Shown piece by piece: positions 4,944 to 38,020 of a stretch of DNA of 39,214 nucleotides; position 1 is the stretch's first letter; the number at the start of each line of letters is the position of its first letter. The position numbers and the translations under genes were made by a program. The stretch is from an uncultured archaeon (GTDB taxonomy: Archaea > Asgardarchaeota > Thorarchaeia > Thorarchaeales > Thorarchaeaceae). The stretch spans positions 1-39,214 of the forward strand of contig CAYYQL010000023.1 of assembly GCA_964473825.1 (NCBI GenBank), read 5' to 3'. The notes under the pieces were generated by a model, which did no database searches, had not been told where the DNA came from, and was given only the letters and a program-made list of their open reading frames with translations.

Positions 4944-5498
4944 TTGTTGGACCTATTTGGTGATATACTTCAGTTCTTCGTCAACGCATTGCAGCCCGTA
5001 TCCTCGTATCCTACCTCCGCAGCATTTGTTGTGTTCGTGAGTGTAGGGTTAGCGTTGATTTCTTCATGGGTTACACTACGTTTCAGCGATGTTGAGAAAC
5101 TTCAGAAGGACATGGAGGAGGTCCAAGAGTGGCAGAGGAAGTTCAAAGAAGCACGGAAGACTATGGATCCATATCTGCTTCAAGAGGTTCAGGATACACA
5201 GGGAAGGATACTGAGACTCCAGTCTGAGATGATGGGTTCAAGAATGAAGCCCATGTGTATTTTCTACATTCCGTTTCTGATAATCTTCTGGATTCTCAAC
5301 TCGCTTTATGGTGCAACTCCTGTGGCCATAATGCCTTTCAACGCCCACAAGCTATTACCCTTTCTGGTTGGATTCTTAGGTACGCCTGTTGAAGGGCTTG
5401 GTTTTGGCCTGTATTTCTGGCCGTGGTATGCGATGGCTAGCTTTGCGCTTGGTAACCTTGTGAGAAGAGCATTCGGTGTTAACACACCCGGCATGTGA
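4944..5498 (+). CDS. DUF106 / EMC3-TMCO1-Get1 (Oxa1 superfamily) membrane insertase
   Basis: TM helix, cytoplasmic coiled coil (DVEKLQKDMEEV...LQSEMM), MKPM..FYIPFLIIF, then FWPWY...SF..GNLVRRAFG. Confidence 0.9.
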   Translation: MLDLFGDILQFFVNALQPVSSYPTSAAFVVFVSVGLALISSWVTLRFSDVEKLQKDMEEVQEWQRKFKEARKTMDPYLLQEVQDTQGRILRLQSEMMGSRMKPMCIFYIPFLIIFWILNSLYGATPVAIMPFNAHKLLPFLVGFLGTPVEGLGFGLYFWPWYAMASFALGNLVRRAFGVNTPGM

Positions 5499-5580
5499 AT
5501 CAAGGAACTTTGGACATTCATCAATCAATGGCATCCCGTCTTCTCAGAGGAAAGCGCTAAGGCGCGGGGCGACCTCGATG

Positions 5581-5595
5581 GCAAGAGCTTTTAAG
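5581..5595 (+). promoter_or_regulatory. BRE/TATA promoter of the rnfDC operon
   Basis: GCAAGAG followed by CTTTTAAG about 45 bp upstream of ATG 5638; AGGTG RBS-like site upstream of the ATG. Confidence 0.5.
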
Positions 5596-5637
5596 ATTGA
5601 GCAGTTACATTTGAGAAAACAGCTAGGTGTTGTAGAG

Positions 5638-6687
5638 ATGTCTGTTGAAGGAGGTCCAGCGGATTACCAAGAGGTTAAGCCGCCACACACGCACATAGGG
5701 TTCACCAAGGATGAGCTCATGTTCAAGACATTTGGGGCGTTGCTGATCATCGCGTTTGCATCAGTCATTGTGATGGGATTGAACGCCCTCATCCATATAC
5801 TGGTTGCAATGGGTGCAGTGTTGCTATTCCATGGCTTGGTTTACTCGTATCAGAGATGGAGGAAGGAGAAACCCACCTATCAATCGCCTGCGTCCCCGAT
5901 GGTTGCAGGAATGATTGTTGCGCTTGCCATGCCCATTGCGAGTCCGTTTGTGGTAACGGCTGCCGTGGCCCTTGTCACAATCGCTGTTTTCAAGTATGGT
6001 CAGGGGGCCTATTTCGGGAGAAAATACCTGAATCCCGCTGCAGCATCGAAAACTCTACTCCTCGTGTTGCTCTCATTGATGATCTTCCTTGAGGACTCCT
6101 TGGATGTTGGGATGCTCTTTCATCCTCATCATCTTAGCTTGGATCTTCTTACTGCCGAGGGTTTCCAGAGTTCTATGTGGATATTCAGCGGAAAGGTGTT
6201 GCCAATACTGAACATCGAACTAACGCCGGCTCAGGCTCTTGTTATCTGGCAGACCCATGGTTGGATTGGCGGAGCATGTGGAGCTGTCGCCTTAGTTGTG
6301 GGTCTGGTGGCTGCCTACTGGCTTAGGTACAAATGGCATATTATCGCAGCAACTCTGTCAACAATCACAGCCCTAGCAATCATCACCGGTCTCGCTGTCG
6401 GAGGAGATCCTCTGTTGCGGGTTGCATTCCATGTGTTCACGGGGAGTGTCATATTCATGGTCTTTTTCATGGCAACCGAGCCCCAATCCACCCCAATGCC
6501 CGAAACCTCTCAGATCATCTTCGGTGTTATTCTGGCTGTTCTGACCTTTGTGCTACAGCTCCTCAACGTACTAGGCGGCTCAATCATTGCGTTGGTAATC
6601 CTGAACTTCGCTACGCCGTACCTGGACAAGATTGGAATCAAGACACCCTATGGACTGAAAGGGTCACACGGAGGAGATGAACAATGA
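5638..6687 (+). CDS. rnfD: RnfD/NqrB family membrane subunit
   Basis: VAGMIVALAMP, LNPAAA, GWIGG, HVFTGS..F..FFMATEPQSTP (cf. FFMATDPVTSP); about 10 TM helices. Likely start is ATG at 5638. Confidence 0.85.
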   Translation: MSVEGGPADYQEVKPPHTHIGFTKDELMFKTFGALLIIAFASVIVMGLNALIHILVAMGAVLLFHGLVYSYQRWRKEKPTYQSPASPMVAGMIVALAMPIASPFVVTAAVALVTIAVFKYGQGAYFGRKYLNPAAASKTLLLVLLSLMIFLEDSLDVGMLFHPHHLSLDLLTAEGFQSSMWIFSGKVLPILNIELTPAQALVIWQTHGWIGGACGAVALVVGLVAAYWLRYKWHIIAATLSTITALAIITGLAVGGDPLLRVAFHVFTGSVIFMVFFMATEPQSTPMPETSQIIFGVILAVLTFVLQLLNVLGGSIIALVILNFATPYLDKIGIKTPYGLKGSHGGDEQ

Positions 6688-8009
6688 ATACCGATGGCAA
6701 AGGTGTGACTGAATTCGTGGAGAAGGGTGGCTTCAAGATGGACTTGTCCATGAAGATCGATGCATTAAGCAGCCCCTTTACGACGGTACCCCCGGCTGAT
6801 AGGATGGTTGTATTCCTTCGTCAGCATATTGGCCCTGAAACAAAGCCCCTCGTGGAGGTCGGTGACGAAGTGGTATACGGACAGAAGATTGGAGATGACC
6901 CCGATGGAGGTCCCTTAGTGGTTCCGGTGCACAGTCCAGTCAATGGGATTGTCACCGATCTGACAGAGATGGTCCATCCAATATCAGGTCGTGAAGAGAT
7001 GGCTGTGGCGATTGAAACCAAGAATGAAGACAAGAAGCCATACTACAAACCTCTGGATCCCGATAATGCAACGAAAGAGGAGCTCGTAGAGAGAGTGAGA
7101 GAGACAGGGATTGTGGGTCTAGGCGGGGCCGCATTCCCAACCCACTTCAAGCTCTCTCCAGGCAAACCAATATCTCATTTGATCATCAATGCCAAGGAGA
7201 GCGACCCGAACACAGCATGCGATTTCTGCCTTATGTTGGAGAGTCCCGATGAGATAATGATCGGGATACAGCTAATGGCACAGATGCTAGGGGCAGGTGA
7301 GGTTATCTTTGCCACGCGTACCAAAGAGGGTGAGACGCCAGAGTTTGAGCGGATCCTGAGTGAAAACAATGTCACCATTACCAGAATCCGACCCTGCTAC
7401 TCAATTGGCAGTGAAAAGCTTCTGGTAAAGGAAGTTCTGGGCAAAGAGATTCCATCAGGAAAGTTCCCCCCAGATATTGGGGTCGTGGTTCACAATGTTT
7501 CAACTGCTCATGCAGTCAAGCGATCAATCATTGATGGAGAATCGCTCGTTAGCAGAGGTCTCACAGCGTATTCGCGAAAGACCGGGGGAAACAATCTTTG
7601 GGTCCGGATGGGCACGCCAGTCGAACACGTTCTGCAATTCCTGGGAGTCGCCCCAAGTGAATTCCAGAGAATTGCCATCGGCTCCATGATGATGGGTCTG
7701 TCAATACCTGATTCATCATATCCTCTCCTGAAGGCAACCTCGGGCATTACTGCTTTCACAGAAGCCGAGACCGATCCTTACGAGGACTCGCTACCGTGCA
7801 TCCGGTGCGGCTACTGCAATACGGTCTGCCCAGTCAACATCTATCCTCAGCTGATAATGGAGGCTGAGAAGGCGGGCGATACTGAGCAACTGAAGAAGCT
7901 CCACGTTGAGGTATGCATAGACTGCGGACTCTGTTCGTATGTCTGCCCATCGTGTATCAAGTTCACTCCATTTCTGCAGAGAGGCAAACAAAAGATCCGA
8001 GATACATGA
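6684..8009 (+). CDS. rnfC: RnfC/RsxC family flavin/Fe-S subunit
   Basis: QHIG..KPLVEVGD.V..GQKIG, PVHSPVNG, GIVGLGGAAFPTHFK, two 4Fe-4S motifs CIRCGYCNTVCP and CIDCGLCSYVCP; ATGA overlap with rnfD. Confidence 0.92.
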   Translation: MNTDGKGVTEFVEKGGFKMDLSMKIDALSSPFTTVPPADRMVVFLRQHIGPETKPLVEVGDEVVYGQKIGDDPDGGPLVVPVHSPVNGIVTDLTEMVHPISGREEMAVAIETKNEDKKPYYKPLDPDNATKEELVERVRETGIVGLGGAAFPTHFKLSPGKPISHLIINAKESDPNTACDFCLMLESPDEIMIGIQLMAQMLGAGEVIFATRTKEGETPEFERILSENNVTITRIRPCYSIGSEKLLVKEVLGKEIPSGKFPPDIGVVVHNVSTAHAVKRSIIDGESLVSRGLTAYSRKTGGNNLWVRMGTPVEHVLQFLGVAPSEFQRIAIGSMMMGLSIPDSSYPLLKATSGITAFTEAETDPYEDSLPCIRCGYCNTVCPVNIYPQLIMEAEKAGDTEQLKKLHVEVCIDCGLCSYVCPSCIKFTPFLQRGKQKIRDT

Positions 8010-8175: not shown

Positions 8176-9012
8176 CTAGGAGACAAGATTCTCAAAGACA
8201 TCTGCTGCTGGATGCTCGAGAGCTGGGTCGAACCGCTTGTCATGCCAGCAGAAGTCGCAATATGAATCACCGTCGACCAGAGTCTTGGTCCTTGTCAGAA
8301 CGAAGTTCGGATTAGCCATTACAGCCTGAGGAAAATGGAAATGGCATAGAGTAGCACGGACAAGTTCAGAATCACCATATGCCTGTAGAATTTCCTCGGG
8401 CATACACCTGTCAATCCGACAAGCCAGTCTTCCACTGTCAAGAAGCGTGGAATGGAGTTCAGAGTCACCCGTGTGGGCCTTCTGATGACGCTCGTAGATT
8501 ACTCTCAGACTCTCGGTGGGCGGTGCCACTATTGCACCTAGCTCTTTCGCCACGAATTCCATAAACTGTTTGCTTAAGTCAAGAGCATCCTCTCGGGACA
8601 CAGTATCAGTGAGTGCCGCAAGCATCAAATAGAGGGTGGAAAAACGGGCGCGATTGTAGACACGCCTCGGCAAAGTCGCCATCTCCTTCTTCAATTCTTC
8701 TTCGTGTGTTGCGTAGTTGAGAAGACGAAGAGTATTCCCCTTTATCAATGCCTCAATCCTGGGATATTCACGAAGGTGTTCTCTTTCATACGTGAATTCC
8801 ACGCCTTCCGTATCGACGTCTGCATCCAGTTCTTGCAGGCGGAATACTGCACGCTCAACAACCTGTTCTACACAAGAAGGTCTTTTCTCCTTCAGGAACT
8901 CGAGAAGAAGCTCGGCCAAGATGAGCGGAGTTGAAGTGAAGAAATACGACGGCAGTTGGATTGTGGCGTTTTCGTTATATTTGATATGCGCTATCTCTGT
9001 TTCTATCTTCAT
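8176..9012 (-). CDS. Protein with C-terminal L-2-amino-thiazoline-4-carboxylate (ATC) hydrolase-like domain
   Basis: IDRC...LCH...LTRTKTLVDGDSYCDFCW signature; GAGGT RBS upstream. Confidence 0.7.
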   Translation of the reverse strand: MKIETEIAHIKYNENATIQLPSYFFTSTPLILAELLLEFLKEKRPSCVEQVVERAVFRLQELDADVDTEGVEFTYEREHLREYPRIEALIKGNTLRLLNYATHEEELKKEMATLPRRVYNRARFSTLYLMLAALTDTVSREDALDLSKQFMEFVAKELGAIVAPPTESLRVIYERHQKAHTGDSELHSTLLDSGRLACRIDRCMPEEILQAYGDSELVRATLCHFHFPQAVMANPNFVLTRTKTLVDGDSYCDFCWHDKRFDPALEHPAADVFENLVS

Positions 9013-30294: not shown

Positions 30295-30735
30295 TTGAGC
30301 ATAACAAAACACAGTCGGATGAAATCTCCATGGGTATTTCATATCAACACGGGATCCTGCAACGGATGTGATATTGAGATTGTAGCCTCGTTGACACCCA
30401 GATTTGACCTGGAGCAGCTGGGTTGTGTATTGGTGGGAACTCCCCGCCATGCTGATGTTCTGCTCATCTCCGGACCGATGACTCGCCAGATGGTAAAGAG
30501 AGCGATAATGGTGTACGACCAGATTCCGGAACCGAAGACAATTGTTGCCATAGGTGCATGTGCTCTATCGACTGGCCCCTTCTTTGGGAGCGATATGGTT
30601 GAAGGTCCTGTTGATCGCCTCTTGCCTGTAGATGCCTACGTCCCTGGCTGCCCACCGAAACCAGAGGCAATCATGGACGGCGTGCTCAAAGCATTGGAAA
30701 AGAAATATGGGTCTGATGAGAATGGCGACGAATGA
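30295..30735 (+). CDS. Group 4 [NiFe]-hydrogenase small subunit (NuoB/EchC/MbhJ-like)
   Basis: SPW...GSCNGCDIE, PRHADVLL..GP, PEPK..VAIGACA, VDAYVPGCPPKPEAI. Confidence 0.95.
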   Translation: MSITKHSRMKSPWVFHINTGSCNGCDIEIVASLTPRFDLEQLGCVLVGTPRHADVLLISGPMTRQMVKRAIMVYDQIPEPKTIVAIGACALSTGPFFGSDMVEGPVDRLLPVDAYVPGCPPKPEAIMDGVLKALEKKYGSDENGDE

Positions 30736-31852
30736 CGAAGCACAACCAAACACCAAACATGTCCGGATTCCTGTTGGGCCCGTCCACCCTGCTTTCAAGG
30801 AACCGGTTCAGTTCAATATTGTACTCGATAAGGATCGTATTGGAGATGTAGACCTTCGAGTGGGCTTTGTTCATCGAGGGATAGAGGCTCTGGCGGAAAC
30901 ACGAAATCTGATGCAGAATATATTCCTTACAGAACGAATATGCGGTATATGCTCCAACTGCCACTCGACATGTTACATCCACGGGGTAGAAGAGATAGGG
31001 GGTATTGACGTACCAGAACGTGCTAAGTATCTACGAGTACTTCTTTCCGAAATGGAACGTATCCAGAGTCACATTCTCTGGCTTGGGATAAATGCGTATG
31101 AAATCGGGTTTGATACCCTATTCATGTATGCCTTCAAGCATCGAGAGAAAGTGAATGACCTCTTTGAGGAGATCACCGGAAATAGGATCCACTATGGACA
31201 CAATACAATCGGTGGCGTTCGCTACGATATTGACGATGATATTTCTCGAAAAATACTCTCAGCAATCAGTGAAGTCGAGAAGGCCGCAATCTACATTCAA
31301 GACGTCTTTGCGGATCGAACGTCTGTGAAGCGATTAAAGGGTGTCGGCGTGTTGAGTACCAGTGAAGCCAAAGAACTATGCCTGGTTGGCCCGACAGCGA
31401 GGGCTTCTGGTGTTCCAATCGATGTTAGAAAGGACGATCCTTATGCGGCATATGACGATCTGCAAGACAGCTTCGACATAGTGTTGGGCGAAGAAGGAGA
31501 TAGTCTCGCAAGAACCGAAGTGAGGAACCTTGAAATATTTGAGTCTGCCAGACTGATACGCGCAGTCCTCGACGAAATGCCTAATGGACCTATCGTTGCT
31601 GAGGGCAGTGACATGAAGCGGATGCGGAGTATCCCTGCGGGAGAGGCTGTGTCTCGTGTAGAGGCACCACGGGGCGAGTTGATTCATTATGTCAAAACAA
31701 ATGGCAAACAGGGACTGGAAAGACTGAAAGTGAGGTCTCCTACATTGGCGAACATCATCAGCATGGAAACAATGTTGAAGGGTCGTGAGATTGCTGATAT
31801 TCCCGTGATTGCTGCATCAATTGACCCCTGTATGAGCTGTACTGACAGATGA
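30722..31852 (+). CDS. Group 4 [NiFe]-hydrogenase large subunit (EchE/MbhL-like)
   Basis: GPVHP, HRGIE, L1 ERICGICSNCH, EAPRGE, L2 DPCMSCTDR-stop. Likely start is ATG at 30722. Confidence 0.95.
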   Translation: MATNDEAQPNTKHVRIPVGPVHPAFKEPVQFNIVLDKDRIGDVDLRVGFVHRGIEALAETRNLMQNIFLTERICGICSNCHSTCYIHGVEEIGGIDVPERAKYLRVLLSEMERIQSHILWLGINAYEIGFDTLFMYAFKHREKVNDLFEEITGNRIHYGHNTIGGVRYDIDDDISRKILSAISEVEKAAIYIQDVFADRTSVKRLKGVGVLSTSEAKELCLVGPTARASGVPIDVRKDDPYAAYDDLQDSFDIVLGEEGDSLARTEVRNLEIFESARLIRAVLDEMPNGPIVAEGSDMKRMRSIPAGEAVSRVEAPRGELIHYVKTNGKQGLERLKVRSPTLANIISMETMLKGREIADIPVIAASIDPCMSCTDR

Positions 31853-31872
31853 CGGAGAAGGATGGTTAAGAG

Positions 31873-32826
31873 ATGATAGAATCACTCATCCTAATACTAA
31901 CCGTGGTTCTCCTGGTTCCGATATCAATCATCCTCGGACTCCTGTTTGAGGGCATGGGCAGGAAGCTTCAGGCTCGAATGCAGAACCGGAGAGGCCCTCC
32001 GATTCTCCAACCCTTCTATGATTTCATAAAGCTGTTCGGCAAGGAGCAGCTCGTACCAGAGACCTCTGCATCGGTGATTTTCACTCTTGCTCCAGTAATC
32101 GCTGTCATCAGCCCGATTATCAGCTCTGTCATGACTATGGCAGTAGTACTCTTCCAAGTACCTCTTGAGGGAGACATTATCTTGATCCTCTACTTGCTTA
32201 CAATACCCTCGTTGATGTATGCGGTTGGAGGCGCATCGTCTGGTAATCCCTTCGGCGCTATAGGCTTTTCTAGAACTATAACGATGATGCTTGCATATGA
32301 ACTGCCTTTCATCATGTCGCTTGCACTCACAATGTTCAAGACCGAGTTCACACTTGCAAGTTATTCAGTTATTCAGTTGCAAGAAACACTGGGCACTGCG
32401 ATGGTTCTAGCTTATCCAAGCATGTTATTTGCGGGGGCAGCTTTTGTGCTTTGCATTCCTGCTGCCGTGGCTGTGGTGCCCTTCGACGTGTCCGAGGCCA
32501 AGACGGAGATTGCCCACGGCGTGTTAATAGAATATACAGGATCTCATCTTGCTCTGATGAAGCTCAGTAAGACAATGTTGTCGTTCAATCTAACTCTTCT
32601 AGCCACAATCCTCTTCTTCAATCATCCCCTGCTGTTTGGCTGGGCTGGTGTTTATGGTTCCATGATGGTACGGCTTCTGCTTGCATTTGTTGTGATGTTT
32701 GCTGCTGCTACACTTCCCAGTACAATCTTTGCACGTTCAAAGCCATATCAAGCATTCAGGTTTTACTGGAAAATTCCAATGCTCTTTGTGGTGTTGTCGA
32801 TCTTCTTTGTGATGATAGGGCTGTAG
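31873..32826 (+). CDS. Hydrogenase membrane anchor (NuoH/EchB/HyfC-like)
   Basis: RKLQARMQNRRGPPILQPFYDFIKLFGKE, PFDVSEAKTEI..G...EYTG. Confidence 0.93.
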   Translation: MIESLILILTVVLLVPISIILGLLFEGMGRKLQARMQNRRGPPILQPFYDFIKLFGKEQLVPETSASVIFTLAPVIAVISPIISSVMTMAVVLFQVPLEGDIILILYLLTIPSLMYAVGGASSGNPFGAIGFSRTITMMLAYELPFIMSLALTMFKTEFTLASYSVIQLQETLGTAMVLAYPSMLFAGAAFVLCIPAAVAVVPFDVSEAKTEIAHGVLIEYTGSHLALMKLSKTMLSFNLTLLATILFFNHPLLFGWAGVYGSMMVRLLLAFVVMFAAATLPSTIFARSKPYQAFRFYWKIPMLFVVLSIFFVMIGL

Positions 32827-33174
32827 GTGATATGTTTGAAAGTGGTTCAAATGCTGCGTGACGCAATAAGGTCACTCTTTCGTAGACCATATACGATTCC
32901 CTGGGATGCAACGCCTGAAGAGAGAGGACCCGTGCCAAAACGGCTTCGAGGGAAGATAGTCTACGACCGAGACACCTGCATTGGATGTCTTCTGTGTACT
33001 AAGATGTGCCCGGCCGGTGCTATCTTGGTGAAAGAGAACAAGAAGGTAAGGTTTAATTTGAGTCGTTGTTTGTTCTGCGGCCAGTGTAGGGACATCTGTC
33101 CTGTAGATGCCATCGAACTATCAACAGAGTATTTGATGGGTACGCATGATCGAGAGAACCTCTATGTTGAATGA
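32827..33174 (+). CDS. 2x[4Fe-4S] subunit (NuoI/EchF-like)
   Basis: RPYT, RGKI, CIGCLLCTKMCP, CLFCGQCRDICP. Confidence 0.93.
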   Translation: MICLKVVQMLRDAIRSLFRRPYTIPWDATPEERGPVPKRLRGKIVYDRDTCIGCLLCTKMCPAGAILVKENKKVRFNLSRCLFCGQCRDICPVDAIELSTEYLMGTHDRENLYVE

Positions 33175-33210
33175 AACTGGTGAGCATTTCTACGTTTGTG
33201 GGGTCTGTAA

Positions 33211-33681
33211 GTGAGTCAGGAAACTGTAACTATTACGCTGGAAAACCTCGTCTACCACTCGACTGATCATCCTCTTCTGAGTGACCTCTTAGAGGAAAAG
33301 TATGGCTTTACGAGGATTGAAGATGATACGCAGGAAGTGTCGAAGGAACAGAAGCCAACAACTCAGTCACTTGAAGAGAAAGAAAACGACAAGATTGTGA
33401 AAGCCGAGATCAAGAAGTACTCAAAACACAAGAAATTGTCTGGTGATTACCTCGATGCAAGTATCCGCGTTGCCATTCTCGGTGATGTTACTTGCACGCA
33501 TACCGTGGTCGAGATCAACTCTGATGAACAGGAGTCTAACTACACCACGACCTATCAGATGATCAGAATCAGTAGCGACAGCGGATACGCGATTCAGAAG
33601 CTCATCGACAGACTGGTCGTTGACCTTGGCCTTGTTATTTCAAAATCTGACTGGTCGTTCCACCGGGTCAAGGACCTCTGA
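33211..33681 (+). CDS. Hypothetical soluble protein at the end of the hydrogenase operon
   Basis: 156 aa, 36 bp downstream of the NuoI-like gene on the same strand. Confidence 0.7.
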   Translation: MSQETVTITLENLVYHSTDHPLLSDLLEEKYGFTRIEDDTQEVSKEQKPTTQSLEEKENDKIVKAEIKKYSKHKKLSGDYLDASIRVAILGDVTCTHTVVEINSDEQESNYTTTYQMIRISSDSGYAIQKLIDRLVVDLGLVISKSDWSFHRVKDL

Positions 33682-33825
33682 ATCGATCGGTATTGTTCAT
33701 GATGGTCGGCTGAACCGACTGACAGCTCAGGTGCTTTAGTCTTGAGTGCAGTGGGCAGAGGAGATAATGATGCCTCGAATTTCATGTTTCGACTTTTGAC
33801 TTTCCCGGGATTCTGAAATGGGTAT

Positions 33826-35298
33826 CTATGTGATGAAGCCCAGGAATAGATGCGGCATGAGTCCAAAAACAATGATGATGGCCGCAGTTATGACTGCAGG
33901 AATCCACATTTCCCGGGGGACCTCTTTCGTGTCCTTAAGAGATTCTCTCTCTGGCCCTGCAAAAATCAGGTGATATGACCTGATGAGGAAGACGAACGCA
34001 AGTAGCGACGTGCTTACGAGTAGCAGCAGCATTACGATAGCGGGCATCAATCCCACACTTGCAAGAAGATGTTGATAGACAGTGCCTAAGAGAAGCCACT
34101 TTGTGATGAAACCGCTAAGGGGAGCTATGCCGGCTAAAGATATGATTGCGATCAGATACACTACAGAAGTACGCCGCATCTGCCTGCCCAATCCTCCGAG
34201 AGATTTCATGTCCATGGTGCCCGTGGCAATGATTACCGACCCTAAACAGAGAAGAATTGCCAGCTTCATGATTGATGCATTCATGAGGTAGAGCTGACCA
34301 ACAGCATAGCTGAGTGGTGTGAACAAACCAAACACGATCATAACATAACCGAACTCTTCGATGGTTGCATATGCGACTAATCTCATGAAGTTATTCTGTG
34401 CATAAGCCAGCAGTACTCCGAAAACAAGTGAGAAGACACCAACACCAATCACAAGGAGTGGGAGGACTGTGGACGGTGAAACAGAGTACAGCATATGAAC
34501 GACTCTGTACAACGCGATGAACAGAGCAATGGGCTCGGCGGCGAAGAAGCAGTTAACGGCTGGTTTTGATGCAGGGAATGCATCTGGTAGCCATCCGTGG
34601 AATGGAGCAACCCCTATATCTGCACCAATTCCAACGATGAAAAACACGCCTATGAGAATGACAAGTCCTGACTCGGCTGCGAGTGGGCCAGGATTGGCCA
34701 GTATTTCACGGATGTTGGAAGTCTGAGCAGTGATGTAGACCAGTATGGTGCCGAGAATCACAAGAAGAGCACTTACTGCTGTAATAATGAGGTATTTGAA
34801 TGAGGCTTCGACTGCGTCTTTTCCTTTTGCATGTACCACCAGTATGACGGAAACGGCAATGACAAGCTCGATGAATAGAGCGACAGCGAATATATCATAG
34901 ACTAGAATCAATCCCAGCATACAAGTCAAAAACGATAATACAACGAAATTGTAAATCTCCGGGCTGAGCCGTCCGCCCTGTTCTGCCTTGATGTTGTAAA
35001 TGGACGTCAGAAAGAAGATGACTCCAACTGCAAGCAAGGGTGCCATGTTTTCTGAGTCCAGCCTGATGGCGGCCCATGGAAACTCATAGATGACCCCGCT
35101 GAAGACCGCTGGAGACAGCAGGATGAGAAGAAGCAGTGTCAAAGATGTACCCACAACAACAGAGGGTTTGTCAACATGCTCGAAGAGATGTTCTAGACGC
35201 GACACGCGGGCAATCAGTATTGAGACCACTGCAACTAGCAACGGGATGCCTAGGACCGCGAGGGGAACGGGCGATGCCATTAGATAAGTCGCCTCCAT
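33826..35298 (-). CDS. Antiporter-like subunit (HyfF/MrpD/NuoN-like)
   Basis: FIEL, EASFKYL, PFHGWLPDA, LGGL, SLAGIAPLSGFITKW; about 14 TM helices. Confidence 0.9.
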   Translation of the reverse strand: MEATYLMASPVPLAVLGIPLLVAVVSILIARVSRLEHLFEHVDKPSVVVGTSLTLLLLILLSPAVFSGVIYEFPWAAIRLDSENMAPLLAVGVIFFLTSIYNIKAEQGGRLSPEIYNFVVLSFLTCMLGLILVYDIFAVALFIELVIAVSVILVVHAKGKDAVEASFKYLIITAVSALLVILGTILVYITAQTSNIREILANPGPLAAESGLVILIGVFFIVGIGADIGVAPFHGWLPDAFPASKPAVNCFFAAEPIALFIALYRVVHMLYSVSPSTVLPLLVIGVGVFSLVFGVLLAYAQNNFMRLVAYATIEEFGYVMIVFGLFTPLSYAVGQLYLMNASIMKLAILLCLGSVIIATGTMDMKSLGGLGRQMRRTSVVYLIAIISLAGIAPLSGFITKWLLLGTVYQHLLASVGLMPAIVMLLLLVSTSLLAFVFLIRSYHLIFAGPERESLKDTKEVPREMWIPAVITAAIIIVFGLMPHLFLGFIT

Positions 35299-35924
35299 TC
35301 TGTTACAGACATAACACCATATTCGCGATAGCCATGGATAATTATGTACACGCCTGCTAGGTTGACGAGACTAACGAGAAGAAGTAGAGGGAATACGATG
35401 GTGAAAGGTGCTTGTTCGAAAAATGGGAATAGCGCCGTTTCTGCGATGTTGAGACCTACAAGAATCTTCAAGGGATCGTCACGTGTTAGAATCAATACAA
35501 AGTCGATAGAGAGTACAAGAGTGACCGGTGCGAAGATGACGAGGTCTCCAGGTACCACTGGCCATATCCATATCCAGAGCATGACCTGTGCGGCAATCAA
35601 TGCAAGAATCACGGCACTTGTGACGCGAATGCCTGTTCTGGGAAAGTCAGATACGTTCTCGGTCTTCCTTACACCTGCATATAGTATGAGCGGGGTGACC
35701 CCCGCAGCGAAGAAAAACTCTCCTGCAGCCGCCATCACCTTGATAGCTGACGTGGCATTCCAAGCCATAGAAGCCTCAATCAGTGCCAGTGTCAGAGATG
35801 CTATGGTGACAATGCTGGCCTGTAACACGAGAATCAGAATGAGCTGTTTTGAGGTGCGAATGTAGCATGCCAGTGCTGTCAGAATCGCGAGAACGAATAA
35901 CAGATAGAAGTAAATAATGTTCAT
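35280..35924 (-). CDS. Small membrane subunit (HyfE-like)
   Basis: About 7 TM helices, LQA in TM2, KILVGLNIAET; lies between two antiporter-like genes. Confidence 0.65.
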   Translation of the reverse strand: MNIIYFYLLFVLAILTALACYIRTSKQLILILVLQASIVTIASLTLALIEASMAWNATSAIKVMAAAGEFFFAAGVTPLILYAGVRKTENVSDFPRTGIRVTSAVILALIAAQVMLWIWIWPVVPGDLVIFAPVTLVLSIDFVLILTRDDPLKILVGLNIAETALFPFFEQAPFTIVFPLLLLVSLVNLAGVYIIIHGYREYGVMSVTEWRRLI

Positions 35925-35928
35925 CGTC

Positions 35929-37878
35929 TTACACCACCAAGAAAGCCATCAGCAGCAAGACCGTCAACCCGAGGATGAACCACAAGAAGGCACGAACAAA
36001 CTGACGCCGGACATCCAACTCCAGTAGCCTCTTACCTGCTTCGTATATCCTCTTAGAGAAGTATTCATAGAGTCGGTCAATGTCAGTGGACCGAACCAGA
36101 CGTTCCACGTTGAAGATATCTGATCGAATTGTGTAGAATAGGTCTGAATGAGATAGTCTATACTCTCCGCTGTCCTCTCCACAGATGAACGGCTTGAAAG
36201 CCTGTTCATGTGGTTGATGCTTGTACTTCCCTCTGTTCTTCGAGAAAACTACTGCTACAAAGACCACAGAGAGTAATACCAATGTGGCCGTTGTGATTAT
36301 GATAGGACTCCAGAGTCCGCCAAAGACCGGTAATATCAGGAAAGGAATCACTTCTTCAACGGACATGCCGAGCTGAACAACACTTGGCAGGATTAGACCA
36401 TCAAGGAGCAGCACGGGGTCGAGTCCGATAATCACTATCAGCCCTGCCATTAGAAGCATTGGAAGCAACATGAAGATGGGCGGATCCGTGACATCAGAAG
36501 GTATTGTCACTTCGCTCTTAACGAGAAAGACAGAATAGAGTATTCGGGTTGCTATCACGATGTGTATTAGCTCTCCCAGTATCGCCACAGACAAAAAGAA
36601 GGGTGAACGGGCCGCAACTGTGGACATTATAACAAGATACTTGGCGATAAACTCGCTAAGCAAAGGCAGACCACCTATAGCTAGAACACTTATTGCTGTA
36701 CATGATGCCGTTATCGGCATCGAGTGATAAAGTCCACCTAGATTGTCGATGTGGCGCATCCCCGTTTCCATGATGACAGCTCCTGCACACAGAAACAGGA
36801 GACCTACAACCAATGTATGTGATATTGCATAGAAGAGACTTGCAGTTACCCCCAGTGGTGACTCCAACCCCAGAACAATAAACACGAAGCCAAGCTCAGA
36901 AGAAGCACCGTAGGCGATAATCCTGGGCAAATCCGTTTCTATTGCAGCATTAATCGCTCCGATGAGAAGGGTAACTGTTCCCACTAGTGATATGACTAGA
37001 CCCAATACACTTGGATTCCCCAGTATTTGAACGAGCGCCACTGTAGGGAAAAGAGTAAGAGCAGGCTCAAATGCCTGTACAACAAGCCGGAGGAGAAGAT
37101 AGATGCCGGTCAGATCAGTTGCGAGGAACAGAACCATAGTCGAAGCTGGCGCGATGGTTCCGTCAGGAAACCATGTATGAAATGGAAACTGGAGACTCTT
37201 GGGAAGAACTGCGAGTAGTGACAATGGAATCAGGGCTGGTAATGTCGCTCCCAGCAACCCCGGATACTGAGCAATTTCATGGATTTGAAGCGTTCCCAGG
37301 GTTGATGAGATGATGATGGTGAGTGCAAGAAGTCCTAGACCGCCGGCATGAGTCATCAAGAAGGCTTTGAAAGCAGCCTCAGGACTGTCTCTTTGGATGA
37401 TTAATGCATAAAGAGACAGAGTCATTATCTCCCAGAAGATGAGGAGGGTGAAGAGGTCTAGTGAAAAGAGGGTTCCTAGGAGTCCGCCAACCATTATCAC
37501 TGAGGTGGAAAGAGACCTATCCGCCATTGACCTGTGGATGCTATCTTCAGTCCTTCTGAAGTAACCAATTCCATATCCGACGATTAAGACTCCGAATAGG
37601 GATCCGACAAGAGCAAAGGAAATGGACAGCAGGTCGATGTACATTCCGGTCTGAATCTCAGTTGTCAGGAGGGTAAGTGTGAATAGGTTGAGCTGCAAAG
37701 CAGAAACCAGGATTGTCGGAAGCAAGGCAATCAACCCGACGAAGACAAACATGACAGCAGCAAGACAAGCCCATCTTGATAGAGTACTTGATTGTGATAG
37801 TTTTGCCAGCGGAAGAGAAAGCGCGCCGGTGGCTAGAGGAATGCCAACAACAAGCACAGCAAGTACGGTATTTATCAA
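35929..37878 (-). CDS. Antiporter-like subunit (HyfB/MrpA/NuoL-like)
   Basis: FWEIMT, KSLQFPFHTWFPD, LGGL...MPIT, GLP.LS.FIAK, PFICGE; GAGGTGA RBS before TTG at 37878. Confidence 0.9.
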   Translation of the reverse strand: MINTVLAVLVVGIPLATGALSLPLAKLSQSSTLSRWACLAAVMFVFVGLIALLPTILVSALQLNLFTLTLLTTEIQTGMYIDLLSISFALVGSLFGVLIVGYGIGYFRRTEDSIHRSMADRSLSTSVIMVGGLLGTLFSLDLFTLLIFWEIMTLSLYALIIQRDSPEAAFKAFLMTHAGGLGLLALTIIISSTLGTLQIHEIAQYPGLLGATLPALIPLSLLAVLPKSLQFPFHTWFPDGTIAPASTMVLFLATDLTGIYLLLRLVVQAFEPALTLFPTVALVQILGNPSVLGLVISLVGTVTLLIGAINAAIETDLPRIIAYGASSELGFVFIVLGLESPLGVTASLFYAISHTLVVGLLFLCAGAVIMETGMRHIDNLGGLYHSMPITASCTAISVLAIGGLPLLSEFIAKYLVIMSTVAARSPFFLSVAILGELIHIVIATRILYSVFLVKSEVTIPSDVTDPPIFMLLPMLLMAGLIVIIGLDPVLLLDGLILPSVVQLGMSVEEVIPFLILPVFGGLWSPIIITTATLVLLSVVFVAVVFSKNRGKYKHQPHEQAFKPFICGEDSGEYRLSHSDLFYTIRSDIFNVERLVRSTDIDRLYEYFSKRIYEAGKRLLELDVRRQFVRAFLWFILGLTVLLLMAFLVV

Positions 37879-38020
37879 CTGTCTCACCTCTTCATCAGAG
37901 TCTGTACCGGAACACCACAGCCTCTCTTGTGGGCTTTCAGTTTTTGCCTCCCCTATTATTCTTGACGTTAGGACCTTTCCTCGGCTCGGAATATGTGCTC
38001 AGATTCGTGTTGGTGTAAAA

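Follow-up and report, generated by a model that had tools for sequence, protein, structure and literature searches.

The window analysed here, a 39,214-nucleotide stretch that lies on contig 23 of the draft genome of an uncultured thorarchaeon (GenBank GCA_964473825.1), carries an rnfD-like gene followed directly by an rnfC-like gene, and the two appear to be a variant of known Rnf parts: a conserved, horizontally spread RnfD-RnfC pair that works alone. The prevailing view of Rnf and Nqr is of machines that need all six subunits, four of which form a conserved core in the membrane (PMC12174285). We propose that the pair is an autonomous module and not part of a six-subunit Rnf, a reading to which we give a probability of about 0.85. 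The electron path that we would assign to it, from NAD(P)H through RnfC to a flavin in RnfD and on to an acceptor, we consider only slightly better than an even bet, and any single acceptor is at best a doubtful choice. A sequence-only reading of the window had suggested a stand-alone, membrane-anchored dehydrogenase outside the six-subunit complex; the absence of partners, together with the separate clade to which the RnfD belongs, supports this suggestion well.

The two open reading frames lie on the plus strand (5476/5578/5638..6687, then 6684..8009) and overlap by 4 bp, ATGA. A gap of 166 bp separates the rnfC-like gene from a convergent gene. The overlap, the D-then-C order and the convergent downstream gene had all been noted from the sequence alone, and each was confirmed from the open reading frames and the Pfam assignments. 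The genes concerned are as follows.

5638..6687, plus strand: rnfD-like gene, 349 amino acids, whose product is a membrane protein with 10 helices that belongs to a non-canonical RnfD clade; another possible ATG is found upstream, at 5578
6684..8009, plus strand: rnfC-like gene, 441 amino acids, encoding an NAD(P)H/FMN domain and a 2x[4Fe-4S] domain
8176..9012, minus strand: ATC_hydrolase-like gene, convergent and unrelated, which closes the operon and lies outside the module

Are the remaining Rnf subunits encoded elsewhere in the genome? The assembly comprises 3.27 Mb in 103 contigs and is 95.7% complete, and we searched the whole of it in six frames with protein profiles; the positive controls were detected, including four known Rnf/Nqr genomes for PF02508. 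No match in the whole genome was obtained to RnfA/E (PF02508), to the RnfG-type FMN_bind domain (PF04205) or to ApbE (PF02424), and a single RnfD locus and a single RnfC_N locus were found. The sole PF04060 match, and thus the one candidate for RnfB, is a 431-residue protein that lacks ferredoxin (Fer4) domains, and it was rejected as RnfB; its only match in the Protein Data Bank is weak, to a corrinoid Fe-S protein. This protein (L003:478-1773, corresponding to G000 contig C1, minus strand) has as its only recognisable domain PF04060, which occurs in RnfB and in corrinoid Fe-S proteins. Unrelated genes flank the pair on both sides of the contig.

The pair is not peculiar to this genome. When 5.8 billion proteins were searched, about 100 clusters matched the RnfD-like protein at 43-91% identity; their names are from Thorarchaeota, Promethearchaeia/Lokiarchaeota, Thermoplasmata and Bipolaricaulaceae, and RnfD-ferredoxin fusions came next, at about 35% identity. 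An exhaustive HMMER search gave just five clusters (at 50% identity) with E values better than 1e-60; a second tier came at 1e-39 to 1e-26, and ordinary RnfD proteins from about 1e-16. A search of the ESM Atlas returned only generic RnfD clusters. Scanning one genome per prokaryote species, we found 48 loci, whose hosts are Asgard archaea, Thermoplasmata, Atribacterota, Acetothermia/Bipolaricaulota, Thermotogae, Halanaerobiaceae and other Clostridia. The Thermoplasmata hosts include records named Natronoplasma, Saliniplasma and Haladaptatiplasma. Many of the isolate names seem to point to soda-lake or hypersaline sediments. Clustering of the open reading frames placed rnfC directly after rnfD in 38 loci. 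Eight loci in which the pair was missed or mis-called were rechecked by tblastn; in five of them rnfD precedes rnfC in separate frames, and in the other three the contig ends before rnfC. Apparent D-C fusion proteins (open reading frames of 582 and 563 amino acids in L059 and L060) were rejected, as tblastn puts D and C in different frames. No gene family besides rnfD and rnfC is kept as a neighbour across the 48 loci.

The absence of the other Rnf parts recurs with the pair. RnfA/E is missing from 36 of the 44 other host genomes, and ApbE from 34. Every archaeal, Acetothermia and Thermotogae host lacks both, and the Atribacterota hosts all lack RnfA/E; the exceptions that carry RnfA/E or ApbE are Halanaerobiaceae and Clostridia and one further genome. 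The two-gene state is thus a trait of the family and not an assembly gap. Within the same Thorarchaeota family RnfD is present in 4 of 36 other genomes, and it was found in none of the 24 other Asgard genomes sampled. Comparison of the window with four Thorarchaeota orthologues gave Nei-Gojobori dN/dS ratios of 0.04-0.14 (about 0.10-0.14 for the unsaturated pairs, in both genes), and the ratio to the congeneric genome is 0.10 for the rnfD-like gene and 0.10 for the rnfC-like gene. Judged by these ratios, both genes are under purifying selection and functional. Literature searches returned no description of a family made up of RnfD and RnfC only; the matches to "RnfCD" were all rnfCDGEAB operons. 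RnfC, RnfD and RnfG only have been recorded in the draft genome of a soda-lake syntroph, where they were treated as Rnf (PMC6295475).

In three Thermoplasmata loci rnfD is followed by two tandem rnfC paralogues (L033:580-4387, L037:9974-13738 and L039:9989-13794). An FAD-dependent HI0933-like gene follows this D-C-C arrangement in L033 and L037, and follows a pair with a single rnfC in L023 and L024, and a gene for a universal stress protein lies next to the pair in L024, L035 and L037. In three further Thermoplasmata loci (L025:5306-6628, L028 and L031) a divergent radical SAM gene of about 435 codons, without a specific family match, lies directly upstream of rnfD.

What do the two proteins retain of their canonical counterparts? 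The rnfC-like product has the full Pfam architecture of RnfC_N, Complex1_51K (the NuoF-type FMN domain) and a 4Fe-4S dicluster, and it scores 384 bits against the NCBIfam rnfC model TIGR01945 (cut-off 246) and 354 bits against the RsxC model NF003454 (cut-off 345). It aligns over its full length with the RnfC subunits of 8ahx, 7zc6 and 9eri, with E values of 1e-57 to 1e-63. Two stretches were compared with the solved RnfC structures.

7116..7211, plus strand: GLGGAAFPTH, the nucleotide/FMN site, together with the family-specific NAKESDPN
7797..7949, plus strand: two CxxCxxCxxxCP motifs for two [4Fe-4S] clusters, which align with the cluster motifs of solved RnfC and are conserved across 38 family sequences

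Of 38 family RnfC sequences, 33 contain GxGGAxFP and 33 contain NAKESDP; the family has NAKESDPN where solved RnfC has NGxECEPY. The comparison shows that the RnfC-like protein retains the FMN/NADH motif and both [4Fe-4S] motifs.

The RnfD-like protein is a more distant relative. It meets the Pfam cut-off for PF03116 (RnfD/NqrB; 120 bits, E 1.5e-34) and scores 79 bits against TIGR01946, for which the cut-off is 207; in phmmer comparisons with solved RnfD only its N- and C-terminal thirds align. An AlphaFold2 model built with 75 family sequences (pLDDT 89, pTM 0.88) has its best fold matches in RnfD (9eri, 8ahx and 7zc6) and then in NqrB, with urea and ammonium channels far behind. We compared sites by profile-profile alignment (hhalign) with 18 canonical RnfD proteins and took conservation from 71 family members. 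Three stretches stand out.

6463..6495, plus strand: FFMATEPQSTP loop on the cytoplasmic side, the most conserved stretch (mean top-residue frequency 0.94), in which the Asp of canonical FMATD is Glu
6121..6132, plus strand: HPHH motif (residues 162-165) in the outward linker between transmembrane helices 5 and 6, the region of the flavinylated Thr in canonical RnfD
6247..6264, plus strand: WQTHGW with an invariant H207; the GGAC that comes next takes the place of canonical GxIGE(T)S and lacks its Glu

On the cytoplasmic side, Asp248 and Asn124 adjoin the riboflavin in Clostridium tetanomorphum RnfD (PMC9588780). The riboflavin-side residues are kept in the RnfD-like protein, the Asn of NPA as such and the acid of FMATD as Glu, and two further features are partly kept, namely the basic residue at +6 from the NPA Asn (Arg in canonical RnfD, here Lys) and the helix-VIII Gly. 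The outward side has been rebuilt. The canonical SGAT Thr falls on a variable column of the hhalign alignment and is Met in the window protein, and no [ST]G[AS][TS] flavinylation motif occurs among the family members listed. The Glu of GE(T)S (Glu185) is replaced in the family by Ala or Ser, and Asn90, as read from the pairwise alignment, by Met. The linker has gained histidines: H162 and H164 are 97% conserved and H165 100% conserved. H265 is a further conserved His that we assign to the outward pocket. These alignments show that the RnfD-like protein has lost the covalent-FMN site and that the family has gained an HPHH/His set, probably outward-facing, that may form a cluster. Positive-inside loops and the C-terminal fusions found in sister clades would place the C-terminus in the cytoplasm and the His-rich linker outside.

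Where does this RnfD belong among its relatives? In a quick IQ-TREE maximum-likelihood search with SH-aLRT support, a superclade is split from 36 canonical RnfD proteins by a branch of length 1.13 with support 100. It contains the RnfC-partnered RnfD family, a sister clade fused to formate dehydrogenase and a tier fused to ferredoxin. Archaeal members lie within groups of bacterial ones, a pattern consistent with transfer from bacteria to archaea. The sister clade (SH-aLRT 99), found in Halanaerobiaceae and Clostridia, consists of proteins of 1,120-1,240 amino acids in which RnfD continues into a ferredoxin domain and then an FdhA-like molybdopterin enzyme, and genes resembling NuoE, NuoF and the N-terminal part of NuoG come after it. 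These loci (L049:10019-16584, with an RnfD protein of about 1,127 amino acids, and also L050-L054 and L057) would encode a membrane-anchored formate dehydrogenase/NADH module, of which we found no description. In the next clade RnfD is fused to an RnfC-type 2x[4Fe-4S] domain; it has more than 471 matches in sediment metagenomes and covers loci L061-L140 (for example, L067 and L134). Its conserved neighbourhood includes radical SAM genes (HemN/HutW-like, AhbD/NirJ-like SPASM and BchE-like B12-binding), MtrH, a small B12-binding protein and CobD, which suggests a link to corrinoid or tetrapyrrole chemistry. A 223-residue protein with no assigned function and large PQQ-like propellers are also encoded near the ferredoxin-fused RnfD.

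H165, H207 and H265 are common to all three clades, and only the RnfC-partnered family has H162 and H164. The RnfD of this superclade thus appears repeatedly as the membrane partner of varied cytoplasmic Fe-S modules without RnfA, RnfE or RnfG, and both fusions, to formate dehydrogenase and to ferredoxin, imply that it takes electrons from such modules without those subunits. The combination that the sequence-only reading had named as fatal to it was not obtained: the genome holds no rnfGEAB set, RnfA/E is absent from most other hosts as well, and the window RnfD falls outside canonical RnfD in the phylogeny.

We propose that the pair forms an autonomous membrane oxidoreductase of two subunits that descends from the NADH arm of Rnf. 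RnfC would bind NAD(P)H, and electrons would pass from its FMN through the two [4Fe-4S] clusters into RnfD, as in Rnf running in reverse (PMC9588780, PMC12174285). In RnfD the electrons would reduce a flavin that is not covalently bound, most probably riboflavin, seated close to the cytoplasmic face at the conserved N...E site. From there two routes would be open to them: across the membrane to the remodelled outward pocket (HPHH, H207 and H265), which would substitute for covalent FMN and its partner RnfG, or to a carrier inside the membrane. The pair would thereby provide an exit, or an entry, for NADH electrons. The conserved motifs support the first half of this path; we infer the second half, along with the cofactor content of RnfD, which way the electrons flow, what the acceptor is and on which side it lies, and any coupling to ions.

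Several points weigh against this proposal. A redox enzyme needs an acceptor or partner, and none was found. Riboflavin binding by RnfD is predicted from two retained residues only. The host genomes have no obvious quinone genes, and none of the 45 has AhbD at the cut-off (the window genome has only a distant radical SAM/SPASM match, at 150 bits), so that neither a quinone nor a haem exit is supported and the search for AhbD lends no support to a haem at the His cluster. Furthermore, we know of no loading route for an outward flavin without ApbE.

A bolder extension of the proposal takes in the whole superclade. Its RnfD could be a general membrane socket for RnfC, for fused formate dehydrogenase or for fused ferredoxin, and could by itself move electrons across the membrane, possibly with Na+/H+ coupling. 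It would then be a two-subunit conduit or pump, the simplest relative of Rnf and Nqr, with an outward His-lined site replacing covalent FMN and RnfG. We offer this as a speculative idea that is probably wrong.

Among the rival explanations, the one that survives best makes the pair an NADH:lipophilic-carrier reductase on the model of NqrA and NqrB, in which RnfC feeds the RnfD riboflavin directly and this flavin passes the electrons, at the cytoplasmic leaflet, to a quinone-like molecule or another carrier dissolved in the membrane, without transmembrane electron transfer. There is a precedent, as the NqrB riboflavin of Na+-NQR reduces ubiquinone in a surface pocket of NqrB (PMC12174285). Retention of the riboflavin-side residues agrees with such a role, as does a borderline MenA-like UbiA prenyltransferase in the Thorarchaeota hosts. 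However, MqnA/D of the futalosine pathway is found in none of the 45 host genomes, and MenA reached its cut-off only marginally, in three genomes. In the window genome the MenA-like match was rejected as a quinone gene, since it sits among crtI, crtB, cruF and a polyprenyl synthase gene and thus looks like a carotenoid gene. Nor does this model account for how strongly the outward linker (HPHH, AEGF and WQTHGW) is conserved. The lipid-soluble, quinone-type carrier that had been suggested from the sequence alone thus loses ground, and we regard a carrier reductase as unlikely. The carotenoid cluster itself (L141:2830-10983, corresponding to G000 contig C9:44829-52982) comprises two CrtI-like desaturases, a phytoene synthase, a polyprenyl synthase and two UbiA prenyltransferases, of which one adjoins a CruF-like gene and the other is marginal as MenA. 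The set resembles the bacterioruberin genes of haloarchaea.

Alternatively, the pair could dock as a hybrid complex on a non-homologous partner encoded elsewhere, either a group 4 [NiFe] hydrogenase/Mrp-type module or an AOR. Both had been suggested as partners on sight of the window, which encodes a group 4 hydrogenase with antiporter-type subunits (30295-37887) as well as an AOR. Close orthologues of the hydrogenase large subunit (64-94% identity) occur in only four related genomes, three of which carry the pair; put the other way, three of the four other Thorarchaeota genomes that carry the pair have the hydrogenase orthologue, at 78-94% identity. In a few other loci the pair has antiporter-like genes nearby. 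However, homologues of the large subunit are present in 56 of 61 Asgard relatives and RnfD in 5 of 61, and the two do not match genome by genome: G013 has the pair and a hydrogenase homologue of only 47% identity, and G015 has a 64% orthologue and lacks the pair. In the congener the hydrogenase and rnfD lie about 22 kb apart on the same contig, but this linkage is confined to the genus, and neither the hydrogenase nor the AOR is kept beside the pair across the 48 loci. As the co-occurrence of hydrogenase and pair is limited to two or three neighbouring genera, shared ancestry suffices to explain the overlap. The distribution of the hydrogenase and the neighbourhoods of the pair lend no specific support to the hydrogenase or the AOR as partner, and we judge a hybrid complex improbable.

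A further pair of ideas dispenses with electron flow through the module as we propose it. RnfC might sense the NADH/NAD+ ratio and gate RnfD as a channel of the Amt or urea-transporter type (Na+/H+ flux), or the pair might feed low-potential electrons to corrinoid or radical SAM enzymes at the membrane. RnfD/NqrB is related to ammonium and urea channels, and many host records bear names from soda-lake and hypersaline sediments; also in favour are the genes around the ferredoxin-fused clade (B12-binding radical SAM, HemN/AhbD-like radical SAM, MtrH, a small B12-binding protein and CobD) and the radical SAM gene that adjoins the pair in three Thermoplasmata loci. Against these stand the loss of the canonical Na+-site residues near the outer flavin (Asn90 to Met, and Glu185 to Ala or Ser), the lack of any such neighbour in the window or in most loci, and the dependence of the argument on the context of a different clade. 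We think either idea a poor wager.

Finally, the view that the pair is an artefact or remnant, with the other rnf genes in the unassembled 4% or the pair the decaying leftover of a lost Rnf operon, can point to a fragmented, incomplete draft and to a patchy distribution (5 of 37 genomes of the Thorarchaeota family), but it is largely refuted, and highly improbable, given the same absence in 36 of 44 independent host genomes from several phyla, the unrelated flanking genes, dN/dS near 0.1, intact frames, conserved cofactor motifs and a distinct clade.

Returning to the two-gene operon itself, we consider its start and its promoter, the latter from a comparison of two close genomes only. The EMC3/YidC-like gene upstream of the pair ends at 5498 (Pfam). 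The features in question are these.

5625..5629, plus strand: Shine-Dalgarno-like AGGTG that precedes the 5638 ATG by 8 nt, read from the sequence and kept in the congener
5575..5601, plus strand: promoter-like block with the TATA-like TTTTAAGA (5589-5596), about 45 nt upstream of the 5638 start; a candidate promoter element

Family homologues of the RnfD-like protein begin at the Met encoded at 5638. The 20 codons of 5578-5637 differ from the congener at seven amino acids, and the remainder of the protein is 93% identical; by contrast, the 27-nt block at 5575-5601 is identical in the two genomes while the flanking intergenic DNA diverges. On the strength of the homologue starts, the codon divergence and the invariant block, we read 5638 as the probable start and the block as a putative promoter element. 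The start at 5578/5581 given in the sequence-only reading is thus disfavoured by the family. That reading had also assigned the pair its own TATA box, which is plausible in view of the invariant block, but the box lies inside the open reading frame as it was then drawn.

A conserved family of RnfC and RnfD only, with a rebuilt outer flavin site, would show that RnfD can work without RnfA, RnfE and RnfG, and it would offer a simpler system in which to ask whether RnfD's own role is that of an electron relay, an ion path or both. Disposal of NADH is a central problem for Asgard archaea and for the fermenters of saline anoxic sediments, and the pair would be a so far unrecognised membrane enzyme for NADH oxidation in the energy metabolism of both. 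There is also a caution for annotation, in that the public label "RnfABCDGE type electron transport complex subunit D" could imply an Rnf complex that is absent.

How, then, does the pair compare with known systems? Like Rnf (RnfABCDGE; 7ZC6, 8AHX and 9ERI), it has a full-length RnfC with FMN/NADH and 2x[4Fe-4S] motifs and a 10-helix RnfD fold with the riboflavin-flanking Asn and acid. Unlike Rnf, it occurs in a genome without RnfA, E, G, B and ApbE and has the gene order D then C, and its RnfD is without the flavinylated Thr and the Glu of GE(T)S, reads FMATE where Rnf has FMATD, carries an invariant outward His set and forms a separate clade. Na+-NQR contains a homologous subunit pair, NqrA-NqrB, and NqrB structures match the RnfD-like model with TM-scores of about 0.55-0.64. 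In that complex the NqrB riboflavin is the last cofactor and hands electrons to the membrane acceptor (PMC12174285). However, NqrA lacks cofactors, whereas the RnfC of the pair keeps all of its cofactor motifs; the NqrB models score only 35-36 bits on the RnfD-like protein against cut-offs of 350-414; and no quinone pathway was found in the hosts.

The formate dehydrogenase-fused RnfD of Halanaerobiaceae and Clostridia shares FMATEPQ(S/T)TP, H165, H207 and H265 with the RnfD of the pair, but it has a fused ferredoxin and FdhA-like enzyme in place of RnfC and YPEH in place of HPHH, and its hosts also carry canonical Rnf and ApbE. Soluble RnfC-like reductases such as the PrdC of proline reductase share with the RnfC of the pair the architecture of RnfC_N, a NuoF-like domain and 2x[4Fe-4S]; PduS is another such reductase. 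The RnfC of the pair nevertheless scores only 142 bits against the PrdC model TIGR04481 (cut-off 490), and no proline reductase neighbours occur in the window or in the 48 loci. These reductases work without RnfD, whereas in the pair described here RnfD is the invariable partner.

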